6,352 nt of DNA from a virus (lineage: Duplodnaviria; Heunggongvirae; Uroviricota; Caudoviricetes): IMG/VR virus record IMGVR_UViG_2690316285_000017; one strand, given 5' to 3'. The translations under genes and the position numbers were made by a program. Numbering within the stretch: the first letter of the stretch is position 1; the number at the start of each line of letters is the position of its first letter. Positions 1,638-6,352 of the stretch are shown here, one piece after another. Under the pieces are notes generated by a model. It had not been told where the DNA came from and ran no database searches. It worked only from the letters and a program-made list of their open reading frames with translations.

Positions 1638-1814
1638 TTAACGGGGGTCTGTGTGGTCGTTATCCTTAAGGTCAAGCGTCCATGTACGACCGAACAGTTT
1701 AAAGACAACAAGCACTCTGACGAGGACGTAGCGAAGTAGCAGGCCTGCAATCAGCCCAATACCTCCACCAGTCCATACATCAGGTGACCCCAGCTCAGGA
1801 GGGAGATTTACCAT
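1638..1814 (-). CDS. Small (58 aa) predicted membrane protein with one hydrophobic helix; an alternative upstream start at 1970 would give 110 aa
   Basis: ATG at 1814-1812 is preceded on the minus strand by cttacaAGGAaaactaATG. The product MVNLPPELGSPDVWTGGGIGLIAGLLLRYVLVRVLVVFKLFGRTWTLDLKDNDHTDPR has a single TM-like segment. The locally GC-richer sequence fits coding DNA. The same frame stays open to an ATG at 1970 that has its own SD (ggggagag) and an extended -10 upstream, but that extension runs through repeat element A. Confidence 0.4.
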   Translation of the reverse strand: MVNLPPELGSPDVWTGGGIGLIAGLLLRYVLVRVLVVFKLFGRTWTLDLKDNDHTDPR

Positions 1815-1992: not shown

Positions 1993-2021
1993 ATTATACC
2001 ACAGATGTTACAAAAATGTTA
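1993..2021 (-). promoter_or_regulatory. Candidate minus-strand promoter with extended -10 (TGGTATAAT)
   Basis: The minus strand reads ctgTGgTATAATggg (TATAAT = plus 1998 to 1993, TG = plus 2001 to 2000). The -35 region is weak (taacat, plus 2016-2021). Predicted start near plus 1986, directly upstream of the SD/ATG at 1970 and of the leader running towards the ORF at 1814. Confidence 0.45.
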
Positions 2022-2028
2022 AAAATAC

Positions 2029-2058
2029 TTGACATTAGTCTTTGAAAATGCTAATATT
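2029..2058 (+). promoter_or_regulatory. Sigma70-type promoter P1 (TTGACA-N17-TAATAT)
   Basis: TTGACA at 2029-2034, a 17 nt spacer, TAATAT at 2052-2057; about 50 nt upstream of the ATG at 2109. Homologous to P2 over about 65 bp. Confidence 0.6.
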
Positions 2059-2108
2059 GTATATATAGGTTAACAGAATAATAACATCTTATGAGAGTCA
2101 GAACATGA

Positions 2109-2666
2109 ATGCAGTATTCAGAATTTAGAGCGATGCTTCAGGCATCAAGAGAACGCAACAAGCACAACTCCTACGCTTACACAAACAACCCCACCAGCTA
2201 CGAAGTCCCAACCTTTAGCAAATCCGAACGTAAGAACATTGAAGCGGTCATTCGTAGCATTACGCCACGAGACAGATTTATGCCAGTACGCAAAACAACA
2301 AAGAATACTATTAAAAATTATCTGGCTAACTTTGACAGTTACGAGCAGTTACCAAGCAAGCTTGATGATGTTTTTATTGGGTTCTGTAGAAGTGAAGGCC
2401 ACCCGAAATACAACAAAAAACTATTTTATCTGCTAAAGAATCTTGACGAAATTAACGCATCCACCGTGACAAATCATCTTCAGCGACAGGCAACCAGACT
2501 TAGTTACGAATTACCAAGCGATAAATATTGCGCTTTGCTTGCTGTGATGTGCGCGAAATTAATTGGCATTGTTGAACATCATATTGCCGTTGGGAATATT
2601 GAGCCAATGGAAAACGAGCAACCAGATTTCGAGTTTGACCCCTATTTAGTTACAGAGGATTTTTAA
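2109..2666 (+). CDS. Hypothetical protein (185 aa), first gene of the operon downstream of P1
   Basis: ORF-track ORF; sits downstream of P1, and its stop abuts the next start (TAA then ATG). SD is weak (gagag about 11 nt upstream). No recognisable motif. Confidence 0.6.
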   Translation: MQYSEFRAMLQASRERNKHNSYAYTNNPTSYEVPTFSKSERKNIEAVIRSITPRDRFMPVRKTTKNTIKNYLANFDSYEQLPSKLDDVFIGFCRSEGHPKYNKKLFYLLKNLDEINASTVTNHLQRQATRLSYELPSDKYCALLAVMCAKLIGIVEHHIAVGNIEPMENEQPDFEFDPYLVTEDF

Positions 2667-2945
2667 ATGAATAAACACACATTAACCAGAGTTACAAAGA
2701 CAGCCTTTGATGAACTGAACCGAATCAAAAACATTACAGGTCTGCCACACTCAGCAGTGATGAAGCTTGCAATTAACCGTGATATTAACGAACAGGATTT
2801 GCTTAATAGTCGCTTAGAGGCTGCAAGACACCATATCAGGATTAAGCAAGATGACCTTGATAGTCTGAAATCCTTAAATGCTTTTGGACTGGATTTAGCA
2901 AGGTTACTAAGTATCAAAATTCACAAACTGTCTCAGGAGGTCTGA
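2667..2945 (+). CDS. Putative ribbon-helix-helix (CopG/Arc/MetJ-like) DNA-binding protein, 92 aa
   Basis: SD gagga 7 nt upstream of the ATG. The N-terminus HTLTRVTKTAFDELNRIKNITGLPHSAVMKLAINRDINE fits the RHH pattern: beta-strand, helix A, G-x-P/S turn, helix B. Assignment is from pattern memory, not a search. Confidence 0.6.
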   Translation: MNKHTLTRVTKTAFDELNRIKNITGLPHSAVMKLAINRDINEQDLLNSRLEAARHHIRIKQDDLDSLKSLNAFGLDLARLLSIKIHKLSQEV

Positions 2946-2947
2946 TT

Positions 2948-3220
2948 ATGAAGCAATGGCGAGATGATATTAAACGGTTCTTTGCAACTTACTTCATGAT
3001 TAATTATGAGACAGGAATGCTTGAATGGATTGATGGTGGAGAGGTTAAGACAAGAGATGATGCTTACGGTAATCCAATGATTCGTTATGGCACTCGTGAT
3101 TATTATCTGAAGTATGTCATCTGGTTTTTGCATCATGAAGTTCAGGCAACTAAAAAGATTATCTTCAGGGATGGTAATAAAAGAAATTGCCACCCAAACA
3201 ATTTACTCCTGGAGATTTAA
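2948..3220 (+). CDS. Small protein (90 aa) with a degenerate HNH_3-like motif, probably not catalytic
   Basis: SD aggagg 7 nt upstream. YLKYVIWFLHH...IIFRDGNKRNCHPNNLLL resembles the HNH_3 signature (H.L.W..hG...DHIDGNK.NN..NLR), but FRD replaces the catalytic DH(I)D. Confidence 0.6.
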   Translation: MKQWRDDIKRFFATYFMINYETGMLEWIDGGEVKTRDDAYGNPMIRYGTRDYYLKYVIWFLHHEVQATKKIIFRDGNKRNCHPNNLLLEI

Positions 3221-3420
3221 TGTTATGTATTAAATTCGAATATTTGACAGATAAAATGATTAAGCATGTATCAGACCTGCTCATCAAAGAAGGTGGTTTC
3301 GGTGATGCTTGCAATCCAAAAGATATCTTCATTCATGCCACCAGCCCAAACGCAACACTAAAGACAGCAGTTACAGCGGAATGGTTTGAACGAAATAAAG
3401 CGGAATTAGGTTATTGGTAG
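3220..3420 (+). CDS. Hypothetical small protein (66 aa), translationally coupled to the upstream gene
   Basis: ATG at 3220-3222 overlaps the upstream TAA (3218-3220) as TAATG; SD ggag about 6 nt upstream. The track's longer ORF from 3187 overlaps the preceding gene by 34 nt and has no SD, so the 3220 start is preferred. Confidence 0.55.
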   Translation: MLCIKFEYLTDKMIKHVSDLLIKEGGFGDACNPKDIFIHATSPNATLKTAVTAEWFERNKAELGYW

Positions 3421-3456
3421 TCCGAGACTTTAAGAGAAATTAGAAAAACAGCTTAT

Positions 3457-3576
3457 CAGACGCTCTCAATCGCATTCTAACGCAAAAAACTATCTTATTT
3501 TAGGGTGGGTAATACCACTACAGGCTACCCCTGAAAAAGACTGTTTAGCTCGTTACAGAGCGATTGAGGAGGTCTG
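3457..3576. repeat. Inverted-repeat element B (~120 bp), paralogous to element A
   Basis: 5' arm cagacgctctcaatcgcattctaacgc (from 3457) and 3' arm cgttacagagcgattgaggaggtctg (3551-3576). Intergenic between the gene ending at 3420 and the gene starting at 3597. The arms can form a stem of about 26 bp with about 4 mismatches. Confidence 0.8.
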
Positions 3577-3596
3577 GTAAAAAGGAGATTTTAAAA

Positions 3597-3920
3597 ATGA
3601 ACGAATATGAATTACAGATTTTCATTGATAGCGACACTGCTATGATGGTGCAGGCTTTCGCTGATTCCGGTGTATCAATTGACCTTGATAAATTACTAAA
3701 GCTAATGGCTGAAAACTCAGAAGAAATTGAAGACTTTATTCAGGAAATTGAAACTGGTGAACCGCGTTTTATGTTTCCTGTTACCGACTCAAACATGAAG
3801 CGTCTTATTATCGAAGAAACGAACAAATACAGCGTTAGCCCTGAAAAATATCTCAAGGCGGCTATAGCAATTTTGTATAGCGATAATATTCTGGTGACGG
3901 ATTCGAAGGTGGTGCATTAA
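3597..3920 (+). CDS. Hypothetical acidic protein (107 aa)
   Basis: ATG at 3597 with SD aaggag 9 nt upstream. The track's TTG start at 3564 lies inside the 3' arm of element B and is considered unlikely. Confidence 0.6.
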   Translation: MNEYELQIFIDSDTAMMVQAFADSGVSIDLDKLLKLMAENSEEIEDFIQEIETGEPRFMFPVTDSNMKRLIIEETNKYSVSPEKYLKAAIAILYSDNILVTDSKVVH

Positions 3921-3985
3921 TGGAATTGGTGATTATCTGTTTTGTATTGATTGGTATGATTGCAGGTGCATCTATTAAAGTATAA
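3920..3985 (+). CDS. Candidate 21 aa hydrophobic micropeptide (MELVIICFVLIGMIAGASIKV), translationally coupled
   Basis: ATG overlaps the upstream TAA as TAATG (3918-3922); SD-like gaaggtgg 7 nt upstream; the product is almost entirely hydrophobic. Very short, so it could be fortuitous. Confidence 0.25.
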   Translation: MELVIICFVLIGMIAGASIKV

Positions 3986-4009
3986 ATGTTACCAATCTGT
4001 TAAAAGCTG

Positions 4010-4038
4010 TTGACAGACAACCTTGAGCATGACATAAT
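4010..4038 (+). promoter_or_regulatory. Sigma70-type promoter P2 (TTGACA-N17-CATAAT), a paralogue of P1
   Basis: TTGACA at 4010-4015, 17 nt spacer, CATAAT at 4033-4038. The upstream ATGTTAC-N5-TGTTAAAA elements and the downstream TGTATATAT are conserved with P1. Confidence 0.6.
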
Positions 4039-4045
4039 TGTATAT

Positions 4046-4192
4046 ATGGGGGAGAGCAATTCTCTCTTATTTTTTCTTTCAATAATCCGATGGATGGATA
4101 TTCTGAGTTTGAAAGGTGCAATGCTTTTCGTCCTAGCCTTTCAGGTTGGTCTGAGAGGCTATCTCAAAAAGTCTTTGTTCATTCATTATTGA
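4046..4192 (+). CDS. Candidate leaderless small hydrophobic protein (48 aa); alternatively this stretch is the body of a ~190 nt small RNA
   Basis: ATG at 4046-4048 lies 7-8 nt after the P2 -10, where transcription is expected to start (leaderless). Product MGESNSLLFFLSIIRWMDILSLKGAMLFVLAFQVGLRGYLKKSLFIHY. TGA at 4190-4192 is followed 16 nt later by an intrinsic terminator. Confidence 0.3.
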   Translation: MGESNSLLFFLSIIRWMDILSLKGAMLFVLAFQVGLRGYLKKSLFIHY

Positions 4193-4207
4193 ATCCTTTA
4201 CAGCTTT

Positions 4208-4235
4208 GCCCTAATCATGAGTTAGGGCTTTCTTT
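4208..4235 (+). terminator. Rho-independent terminator
   Basis: Stem GCCCTAA (4208-4214), 7 nt loop, TTAGGGC (4222-4228), then TTTCTTT (4229-4235). Confidence 0.6.
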
Positions 4236-4304
4236 AAGAGTTTTTAAACAGAGCTTTTAAAGAAAGTTTTCCTGAAACTTCGTTAACGTTATAAGCAAAC
4301 CTCC

Positions 4305-4339
4305 AAAGCCCTTCACAGATTATGTTTAGGGCTTTTCTT
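4305..4339 (+). terminator. Second terminator-like hairpin
   Basis: Stem aGCCCT (4307-4312) pairs with AGGGCt (4328-4333) across a 15 nt loop, followed by ttttctt. The stem resembles that of the hairpin at 4208-4235. Confidence 0.35.
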
Positions 4340-4408
4340 AATAGAGCATCTTTAATAAATCGTTAAGTCATCTTCTAAGTGTATTGGCGTTGAAGGTGCT
4401 CTATTAAG
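4337..4408. repeat. Perfect 12 bp inverted repeat (cttaatagagca ... tgctctattaag) separated by 48 bp
   Basis: Arms at 4337-4348 and 4397-4408, directly upstream of the SD/ATG of the gene at 4436; the first arm overlaps the U-tract of the preceding hairpin. Confidence 0.8.
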
Positions 4409-4435
4409 AAATAACCACACTTAGAGGAAATTATA

Positions 4436-5534: not shown

Positions 5535-6335
5535 ATGGCACAATTTAAAGTTGATGATTTTCTGATTGAGTTAAGTTTTAACTCTCAGAAAGTTTTAAAA
5601 GGCTTGGAAAAAGCCGAGAAACAAACGATGCAGGTAGCATCACGAATTGAGAAGCGATTGAATAAGTCGTTTAGAGTTAATCCTACGCCTTTAAATGATT
5701 CTCTCAAACTAATGGAAAGAAATGTCGATAAAACTGTTTCCAAGATTGAGCAGCGTCTTAAAAACACTAGAGCGTTTAAGATTAAAACTGAAATTGAGGA
5801 TACTTTAAAGCCACTTAGACAACCAAGACAGCCACGAATTAGCGGAAGCAGAGCAATCACAGCAGCTTACTCAGCGAATATGAGCAAGCTTCGTGACTTT
5901 AATCCTATGCTTGAGAAGTATTTTAAAAGCCAGTATTACAGCTTAAGCAGTAAATCCAAGACACTTGGAAACGAAACTTTTAATCGTGAGTTAGCAAAGT
6001 TAAATCAGTCTCTTCGTGAAACACTTTCTAAGTTTAACAAGACCACCAGCAAAAATAATCACAGTGAAAATGCTTCAAATAGTCTGGATGTATTAGCTAC
6101 GAGTGCAATCAAAGCAGGTACAGCCATTTATAGTTTTCAGACAGCCTTAGAAGCTTACAGGCGGATTATGGAGGTTGGTCTGAAAAAAGAAGCATCACAA
6201 CGAGCGGCACAATTCGTTTTAGGTGATGAAGGTGCTAAACGAGCTACAGAATTTGTTAAGAATCTTGCTGATAGTAGTGGTGTAGACCAGATTGAAACAT
6301 TAAGCAGTTTTGCTAAGTTTGAAGTGGCACACTGA
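5535..6335 (+). CDS. Hypothetical protein (266 aa), K/S/T/N-rich and probably largely helical
   Basis: SD aagaggtg 9 nt upstream of the ATG; a long ORF that ends with TGA inside the window; no family recognised from sequence. Confidence 0.6.
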   Translation: MAQFKVDDFLIELSFNSQKVLKGLEKAEKQTMQVASRIEKRLNKSFRVNPTPLNDSLKLMERNVDKTVSKIEQRLKNTRAFKIKTEIEDTLKPLRQPRQPRISGSRAITAAYSANMSKLRDFNPMLEKYFKSQYYSLSSKSKTLGNETFNRELAKLNQSLRETLSKFNKTTSKNNHSENASNSLDVLATSAIKAGTAIYSFQTALEAYRRIMEVGLKKEASQRAAQFVLGDEGAKRATEFVKNLADSSGVDQIETLSSFAKFEVAH

Positions 6336-6352
6336 ATTTGGCCACCTGAACA

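Follow-up and report, generated by a model that had tools for sequence, protein, structure and literature searches.

Putative ArcA boxes at the main promoters of a chromosomal island related to FelixO1-like phages

The window analyzed in this work is a stretch of 6,352 nucleotides from the IMG/VR record IMGVR_UViG_2690316285_000017 and corresponds to the leftmost 6.3 kb of a chromosomal island. An initial annotation had described two paralogous promoter modules in it, P1 and P2, conserved beyond their -35 and -10 hexamers and suggested to answer to one regulator encoded by the element. The promoter layout of P1 (2005-2066) and P2 (3986-4047) was recovered at precisely the coordinates given there, and a divergent promoter, P_L, which had been missed, was identified next to P1. 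Three sites resembling binding sites of the host regulator ArcA accompany these promoters. The corresponding features are given below by position and strand. Box positions relative to P1 and P2 assume predicted starts at ~2064 and ~4045, identities are mean pairwise identities among homologous sequences, and N6 denotes the six nucleotides between two half-sites.

2005-2066, plus strand: P1 module, with ATGTTAC (2005-2011), 5 nt, TGTTAAAA (2017-2024), 4 nt, TTGACA (2029-2034), a 17-nt spacer, the -10 hexamer (2052-2057) and TGTATATATAGG
3986-4047, plus strand: P2 module, offset by 1981 nt from P1, with ATGTTAC (3986-3992), TGTTAAAA (3998-4005), TTGACA (4010-4015), a 17-nt spacer, CATAAT (4033-4038) and TGTATATATGGG
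2029-2057, plus strand: P1 core, TTGACA, 17-nt spacer ending in TGC, TAATAT; predicted start ~2063-2065
4010-4038, plus strand: P2 core, TTGACA, 17-nt spacer ending in TGA, CATAAT; predicted start ~4044-4046
1993-2022, minus strand: P_L, -35 TTAACA (2022-2017), 18-nt spacer, TGn, -10 TATAAT (1998-1993); predicted start ~1986
2005-2022, plus strand: putative ArcA box A (ATGTTACAAAAATGTTAA), 23.7 bits, ~-59 to -42 of P1; identity 0.98 in the half-sites and 0.69 in the N6
2070-2087, minus strand: putative ArcA box B (ATGTTATTATTCTGTTAA), 17.9 bits, ~+7 to +24 of P1; identity 0.99 in the half-sites and 0.70 in the N6
3986-4003, plus strand: putative ArcA box C (ATGTTACCAATCTGTTAA), 18.2 bits, ~-59 to -42 of P2; identity 0.996 in the half-sites

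Layout of the promoters

P1, P2 and P_L each possess both sigma-70 hexamers at a distance of 16 to 18 nt. In a scan against the sigma-70 consensus, P2 matched at 11 of 12 positions (TTGACA-17-CATAAT), P1 at 10 (TTGACA-17-TAATAT) and P_L at 11 (TTAACA-18-TATAAT). P2 was the top promoter-like site of the window, and P2, the minus-strand site at 2022-1993 and P1 were all among its top four, each with TG before the -10 hexamer; the TGn of an extended -10 is thus present in P1 and P2 alike. The -10 hexamer initially proposed for both modules, (T/C)ATAAT, is correct for P2 (CATAAT) but not for P1, where the actual hexamer is TAATAT and, in most homologues, TAGTAT.

Aligned without gaps and in register, P1 and P2 are identical at 43 of 62 positions, whereas, when the window was shuffled 20 times with dinucleotides preserved, the best pairs of 62-mers had 34 to 39 identities; the raw similarity is thus above chance, but modestly. 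Outside the functional motifs the identity is low, with 8 of 17 positions in the spacer and none of the 4 between the box and the -35 hexamer. The case for a relation between the two modules depends on where the identities are placed and on conservation in other elements. Stronger evidence comes from the bipartite motif ATGTTAY-N5-TGTTA, which occurs three times in the window against 0.11 expected, a number reached in none of 200 shuffles. As for the term paralogous, the shared layout is real, but common descent is inseparable from convergence on the same functional motifs.

The third exact copy of this motif, also missed in the initial annotation, is inverted and lies on the minus strand at 2071-2087, just past the predicted start of P1. 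In the 46 kb around a full copy of the island, the same three copies were found and no others at that stringency.

Putative ArcA boxes

The minimal ArcA site consists of two 10-bp direct repeats, ATGTTAAAAA-N-ATGTTAAAAA, 11 bp apart from centre to centre, of which TGTTA is the most conserved part (PMC4173790; PMC3798270). All three boxes of the island have an exact TGTTA in both repeats, starting at 2006 and 2017 in box A and at 3987 and 3998 in box C, and occupying 2082-2086 and 2071-2075 on the minus strand in box B; the spacing is 11 bp in each case.

A position weight matrix (PWM) was built from 115 E. coli ArcA boxes supported by chromatin immunoprecipitation (ChIP; Table S3 of PMC3798270), with training sites scoring 9.6 to 21.5 bits. 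Boxes A, C and B are the three top matches in the window. Box A ranks first and, at 23.7 bits, exceeds the best training site (21.5 bits), and all three scores lie within or above the published range for supported ArcA boxes (9.1-21 bits). Across 1000 dinucleotide shuffles, matches of at least 17.9 bits averaged 0.041; no shuffle contained three such matches and none reached 23.7 bits. Among distinct homologous sequences, a score of at least 15 bits is kept by box A in 60 of 60, by box B in 58 of 60 and by box C in 46 of 48 (164/168 instances).

In ~70 kb of flanking chromosome, matches of at least 15 bits were mostly the published boxes of rutR, phoH, putP, oppA1, oppA2 and trpD, accompanied by two to three unlisted matches at 15.3-15.4 bits; the sole match of at least 17.9 bits was that of rutR (21.3). 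As the published flanking boxes belonged to the training set, these figures give a background rate and not an independent validation. Weaker matches in the window itself lie at 154-171 (15.3 bits), just past the recombinase stop codon, and at 4349-4366 (14.6 bits), within a long stem of the P2 leader, with ~0.3 matches of at least 15 bits expected by chance. A third repeat, TGTTG, over the -35 hexamer of P2 was not counted, because it lies 10 bp, not 11, from the second repeat in the window and in most homologues. OmpR was set aside as the binder, given that the first repeat is GTTAAT and not GTTAC in most homologues and that the ArcA matrix covers all three sites; no formal OmpR scoring was made.

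Boxes A and C each end 6 nt from the -35 hexamer of their promoter. P1 and P_L form a back-to-back pair with predicted starts ~78 bp apart; box A overlaps the -35 hexamer and spacer of P_L, and the centres of boxes A and B are ~65 bp apart, the two boxes bracketing P1 in opposite orientation. The -10 hexamer of P_L is invariant across homologues (ATTATA on the plus strand). A leftward promoter at P2 that would mirror P_L was rejected, its -10 equivalent, TTTAAT, being poorly conserved, and the conservation of box C is therefore not explicable as that of a -35 hexamer on the opposite strand.

Conservation in homologous elements

Seventy related loci of genomic, metagenomic and viral contig origin were compared; the identity of their 185-aa proteins to that of the window is 62-95%. 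Distinct homologous sequences numbered 60 for P1 and 48 for P2, and a profile of both modules retrieved exactly two copies per element. By column, the mean pairwise identities were as follows.

-35 hexamer: 1.00 at P1 and 1.00 at P2 (invariant)
17-nt spacer: 0.946 at P1 and 0.905 at P2
-10 hexamer: 0.90 at P1 and 0.884 at P2
Block after the -10 hexamer: 0.911 at P1 and 0.698 at P2
Third codon positions of the neighbouring gene: 0.759 at P1 and 0.656 at P2

P1 and P2 are more constrained than the coding DNA beside them. The conservation beyond the hexamers that had been noted within the window thus extends to distinct homologues, where the modules are kept more strongly than adjacent codons. 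The TGTTA half-sites have mean pairwise identities of 0.98-0.996, whereas the N6 between them ranges from 0.69 to 0.91 and takes the forms ATAAAA, ATGAAA, CGAAAT, CCAATC, TCAACC and others. Constant half-sites and a drifting N6 are the signature of a protein site made of direct repeats one helical turn apart, and the reading of ATGTTAC/TGTTAAAA as a protein-binding site, put forward in the initial annotation, agrees well with this contrast.

Probable control by ArcA-P and its direction

We consider it reasonably likely that P1 and P2 are strong sigma-70 promoters that are controlled, and probably repressed, by phosphorylated ArcA (ArcA-P) of the host. The host ArcA, which explains the sites with no further assumption, is the most likely regulator, ahead of one encoded by the element; the single element-encoded regulator initially proposed could not be shown, and the site fits the architecture and the matrix of the host ArcA. 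From the layout, the conservation and the match to ArcA boxes we infer occupancy by ArcA-P, along with the transcription starts and the direction of the effect. Under conditions such as those of the gut, with little oxygen or a reduced quinone pool, ArcB would phosphorylate ArcA, and ArcA-P would bind to the boxes, most likely as a repressor. On box A, it would occlude the -35 hexamer of P_L and repress this promoter; on box B, over the early transcribed region, it would repress P1; and on box C, at the position of the C-terminal domain of the alpha subunit (alpha-CTD) and the UP element, it would repress P2. Two rightward gene blocks and one leftward gene would then follow the redox state of the host.

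Repression of P_L, P1 and P2 is favoured because ArcA sites at comparable positions sit in repressed operons. According to Table S6 of PMC3798270, ndk, which is repressed 8.2-fold, has its ArcA site at -63 to -43, and the sites of other repressed operons lie at -72 to -51 (nudE), -69 to -49 (bssR), +8 to +28 (fadH), +4 to +35 (fadE) and -12 to +21 (icdA), whereas those of activated operons are mostly beyond -90; the sites of ndk, nudE, bssR, fadH and fadE consist of two repeats. In the same study, the ArcA site overlapped the RNA polymerase footprint at 52 of 66 repressed promoters (PMC3798270).

Several points weigh against control, or against repression, by ArcA-P. Boxes A and C are clear of the -35 and -10 hexamers of P1 and P2. 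Their position is shared by promoter-proximal OmpR sites, for which it is an activating one. The identical spacing between box and -35 hexamer at both promoters, together with the precedent of the PY promoter of plasmid R1, could indicate activation or counter-silencing, either of which is possible at P2. The motif is also dense in the terminal repeat of phages of the helper type, which makes a phage protein with ArcA-like specificity possible. Finally, an A/T-rich window favours matrix matches, although the shuffles control for A/T richness.

Genes and structure of the island

Shigella sonnei proteins with 100% identity to the 185-aa protein of the window occur on more than 1000 contigs. Of 5426 complete E. 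coli genomes, 184 contain the P1 module; Shigella, Citrobacter and Salmonella also carry the element. Full E. coli copies are ~10.6 kb long (L002:19232-29844); the copy of strain A0 34/86 lies between yciI and tonB, and strain SLK172 has a copy disrupted by an insertion sequence between ymdF and wrbA. A full copy has at its left a small serine recombinase gene, continues with a non-coding region of ~2 kb that is rich in repeats, and then has P1 with five small genes. The right part follows with P2, a 390-nt leader and the genes for a 236-aa protein, a 69-aa protein, the tape measure, a Dit-like protein and a 506-aa large serine recombinase. The genes of the window that are relevant here are the following.

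2109-3420, plus strand: genes downstream of P1, for proteins of 185 aa, 92 aa, 90 aa (HNH-like) and 67 aa
4436-6316, plus strand: genes downstream of P2, for proteins of 236 aa and 69 aa and for a tape measure that an IS911 end truncates at ~6317
1638-1814, minus strand: gene for a 58-aa single-pass membrane protein, the predicted product of P_L

In homologous elements, the genes downstream of P1 are annotated as hypothetical proteins and an HNH endonuclease. The open reading frame (ORF) of the membrane protein (58-62 aa) is present in practically every homologue and varies as a coding sequence would, and family searches gave no match for it; the gene at 1638-1814 is absent from the annotation of homologous records. 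An IS911-type terminus at 6317-6352 truncates the tape measure gene after ~260 codons, and this copy of the island is therefore probably defective.

The Dit-like protein shares ~70% identity with that of the FelixO1-like phages, which are virulent myophages (Ounavirinae), and the tape measure is 77% identical to those of Ounavirinae over its first 47 residues and ~35% identical over the remaining aligned region. Given the homology of these two proteins, the element looks like a satellite or parasite of FelixO1-like phages, and an undescribed one. Literature searches returned nothing relevant on this element or on satellites of FelixO1-like phages.

Other observations concern the repeats and ends of the island. 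A second paralogous module, an imperfect palindrome of ~100-125 nt, occurs at 1823-1926 and 3452-3576, with an inverted partial copy at 490-556. The copy at 3445-3585 folds at -49 kcal/mol (z-score -6.6), and the one beside P1 is present in some elements and absent from others, causing an offset difference of ~100 nt. The left non-coding region contains a perfect tandem duplication of 28 bp at 848-903 (TTAACAGATAACCACCTAGAAAGAAGGG twice) and, at 1325-1502, a tandem pair of ~95 bp (1325-1407 and 1419-1502); these repeats may be origin or packaging repeats. The small serine recombinase is encoded on opposite strands and by different variants at L001:19607-20155 and L002:19232-19807 (182 and 191 aa, respectively), and genomes differ in a mosaic fashion at the left end of the island.

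Other shared blocks and the leader of P2

Further features at and downstream of the two promoters are these.

2058-2066, plus strand: A/T-rich block TGTATATAT at P1, discriminator and predicted start; mean pairwise identity 0.91
4039-4047, plus strand: TGTATATAT block at P2; mean pairwise identity 0.70
4048-4066, plus strand: stem-loop (GGGGGAGAG-CAA-TTCTCTC) at the 5' end of the predicted P2 transcript
4045-4435, plus strand: leader of P2, ~390 nt, non-coding, with terminator-like hairpins at 4208-4228 and ~4305-4335

The block TGTATATAT had been considered a candidate operator common to both promoters. Although the P1 family keeps it, only ~27 of the 48 distinct P2 sequences do so, the remainder having TTTAATTAT or GGTAATAG, which argues against that role, and it is read here as an A/T-rich discriminator and start region. 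A function as a second -10 hexamer or as a sigma-dependent pause was also rejected, the block lying upstream of or at the start, being unconserved at P2 and being absent from the phage genome. The arrangement TTAAAA-N4-TTGACA is typical of early promoters of the FelixO1-like phage mistaenkt, one of which fits the profile of the P1/P2 core with an E value of 8e-5. The A-tract may double as a proximal UP element, and the promoter core may derive from a phage promoter.

The stem at 4048-4066 shows compensatory changes among homologues (GGGAGAG/CTCTCTC, GGAAGAG/CTCTTCC and AGAGAGA/TCTCTCT). As a T-run follows it in some homologues only, it is not a general terminator. Both terminator-like hairpins of the leader are invariant in homologues. 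Just upstream of the ribosome binding site of the 236-aa gene, a long stem at 4334-4411 has abundant covariation among 40 distinct sequences, with swaps between CG and UA and between GC and AU at most pairs, which points to a conserved structure. No reading frame of the leader is conserved among homologues, and an Rfam scan of the whole window returned no family at E values up to 1. Antitermination of the Q type at P2 was rejected, since the T-run is unconserved and no match to a Q family was found in Pfam or PHROGs. A GATG tetranucleotide repeat in the leader (4088-4099) varies between two and five copies among homologues. Upstream of P2, a poorly conserved hydrophobic ORF of 21 codons at 3920-3985 (MELVIICFVLIGMIAGASIKV) overlaps the stop codon of the 107-aa gene and reaches as far as the edge of box C.

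TGTTA arrays in FelixO1-like phages

In phage mistaenkt, 8 of the 15 PWM matches of at least 14 bits in the genome fall within the last 600 bp, the maximum being 22.7 bits. This terminal region (86040-86664; L075:36040-36664) contains arrays of TGTTA(A/G) with an 11-bp period, in which the exact motif ATGTTAC-N5-TGTTA occurs twice. The array region is conserved in ~250 Ounavirinae records. In Felixounavirus UAB_69 the arrays lie in an annotated direct terminal repeat of 618 bp (L076:1592-2209), with 26 TGTTA and 11 matches of at least 13 bits. Ounavirinae phages may therefore also use ArcA, or else encode a protein with the same specificity.

Parts of the left non-coding region of the island align weakly but colinearly with the phage terminal region. 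The stretches that resemble the terminal non-coding region are 183-346, 653-677, 824-866 and 1224-1259, and one of them, 25 nt long, matches mistaenkt 85422-85446 with 96% identity. Direct DNA comparison of P1 or P2 with phage records gave chance-level matches only, and tblastn with the small proteins of the island revealed no homologue in the phage genome.

Alternative explanations

The sites could instead be bound by a protein of the island, of 92 or 185 aa, that autoregulates both units, the likeness to ArcA being coincidental. Both genes lie under P1, as is common for autoregulated units. Direct repeats spaced by one helical turn can be bound by ribbon-helix-helix proteins, and the 92-aa protein, the candidate for such a fold, belongs to a family with two strand-helix-helix (beta-alpha-alpha-like) segments, a pattern compatible with two beta-alpha-alpha units; it also has a weak Pfam match to DndE (E value of 0.027), too weak to pass the curated cut-off. 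However, neither protein matches a curated family, profile searches of the PDB with both families found nothing relevant, and the AlphaFold models are unreliable, with a predicted local distance difference test (pLDDT) score of 50.7 for the 92-aa and 41.8 for the 185-aa protein. Family and profile searches of the proteins of the element likewise found no recognisable DNA-binding domain, of the OmpR type or otherwise, that could take the place of ArcA. Half-site and 11-bp spacing moreover match those of ArcA exactly, and box A outscores every chromosomal ArcA box, which leaves an element-encoded regulator unlikely. An ArcA-like winged helix in the 185-aa protein was specifically considered and rejected (BLASTP E value of 0.058, nothing in the PDB, an unusable model), and the heptapeptide SEFRAML, shared with ArcA, is not conserved in the 185-aa family, so that this lead was dropped. 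It is very unlikely, in turn, that P1 and P2 have no dedicated regulator and owe their resemblance to shared ancestry or to convergence towards the layout of a strong promoter, namely, an A-tract UP element, a consensus -35 hexamer, a TGn -10 and an A/T-rich discriminator, with the TGTTAA of box A conserved solely as the -35 hexamer of P_L. The sequence TTAACA at 2022-2017 is plausible as a -35 hexamer, and phage early promoters, which also have TTAAAA-N4-TTGACA and include one that fits the P1/P2 core profile at the E value given above, lend this explanation some weight. Yet distal and proximal TGTTA half-sites show the same degree of conservation, with drift in the bases between; box B is located past the start, where its presence is accounted for neither by a UP element nor by a -35 hexamer; and the half-sites of box C reach 0.996 even though the leftward -10 at P2, TTTAAT, is poorly conserved and devoid of the key A.

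A further explanation, which we judge improbable, is that the boxes serve in sensing a helper phage: when a FelixO1-like phage infects the cell, either a protein of the phage that recognises the TGTTA arrays of its terminal repeat would also bind to the boxes, or the arrays of the replicating phage would titrate ArcA-P and so derepress P1, P_L and P2. It would fit the homology of the island tape measure and Dit-like proteins to those of Ounavirinae, the dense packing of ArcA-like TGTTA arrays in the terminal 600 bp of mistaenkt and in the UAB_69 terminal repeat, and the conservation of the array region in ~250 Ounavirinae along with the two exact copies of ATGTTAC-N5-TGTTA in the phage array. 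It is, however, purely inferential: no phage protein of such specificity is known, the search having been limited to tblastn with island proteins, and a literature search found nothing linking ArcA to FelixO1-like phages. In its most specific form, which is more improbable still, the satellite would detect a virulent FelixO1-like helper through its ArcA boxes, the ~25 high-affinity TGTTA repeats in the terminal repeats of the phage, or a phage protein that binds them, stripping ArcA-P from P1, P_L and P2 during phage replication and thereby switching the island on. A global regulator of the host would then be the repressor of the satellite, and helper DNA its inducer.

Comparison with known systems

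Promoters with ArcA boxes are already known, and the wider interest lies in the setting, an island that seems not to have been described before and is related to virulent FelixO1-like phages. Like chromosomal promoters repressed by ArcA-P (icdA, ndk, fadE, fadH and lpdA; Park et al. 2013, PMC3798270; Park and Kiley 2014, PMC4173790), those of the island have two TGTTA repeats 11 bp apart from centre to centre, box scores within or above the ChIP-supported range, and boxes placed as in ndk (-63 to -43) or in fadE and fadH (+4 to +35); as reported for several chromosomal ArcA sites, one box is shared by divergent promoters. In contrast to the chromosomal cases, the island promoters belong to a horizontally acquired, phage-related island and not to carbon oxidation genes, and they are known here from their sequence. 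They also differ in that two inverted boxes ~65 bp apart bracket P1, and in the combination of a consensus -35 hexamer with an extended -10.

Another related case is the ArcA (SfrA) site of the PY promoter of F-like plasmids such as R1, where TGTTAAGTAAATGTTAA, at -76 to -60, is protected by ArcA-P (PMC7303359). As proposed for the island, a mobile element there places an upstream TGTTAA box with two repeats for the host ArcA at its main operon. The R1 box, however, lies further upstream and acts together with TraJ to counter silencing by H-NS at a promoter with a poor -35 hexamer (PMC7303359), whereas the -35 hexamer of the island promoters is consensus, no site for a TraJ-like partner is evident and the positional precedents favour repression.

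P2 also recalls the lambdoid PR' promoter and its antiterminator Q, in that a strong, constitutive-looking promoter precedes tail genes, with a long leader between them that contains terminator-like hairpins. However, no Q-like protein was found, the start-proximal hairpin keeps its stem but not its T-run, and the -10-like repeat of P2 lies upstream of the start and not in the early transcribed region; the resemblance to a Q-dependent late promoter is not supported. As regards the element as a whole, the phage-inducible chromosomal island-like element (PLE), a satellite of the virulent Vibrio phage ICP1, is likewise a small chromosomal island with a large serine recombinase, long non-coding repeats and genes related to virulent myophages. 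The full copy L002 has the gene content of a satellite, with the 506-aa large serine recombinase and the Ounavirinae-related tape measure and Dit-like proteins. PLE has different hosts and helpers, and no sequence relationship to it was found; the island, known here from its genes, differs further in carrying homologues of a tape measure and a Dit-like protein.

Significance

If control by ArcA-P is true, the main transcription units of the island would be wired to the oxygen and redox sensor of the host without the need for a repressor of its own, and the island would behave differently in the anaerobic gut and in aerated culture. In this context, arcA and arcB mutants are a cheap experimental handle on an uncharacterised element. 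FelixO1-like phages are widespread, and some are used in biocontrol and typing. Their terminal repeats share the motif of the island boxes, which raises the question of whether ArcA may be a host factor for FelixO1-like phages that links phage and island.

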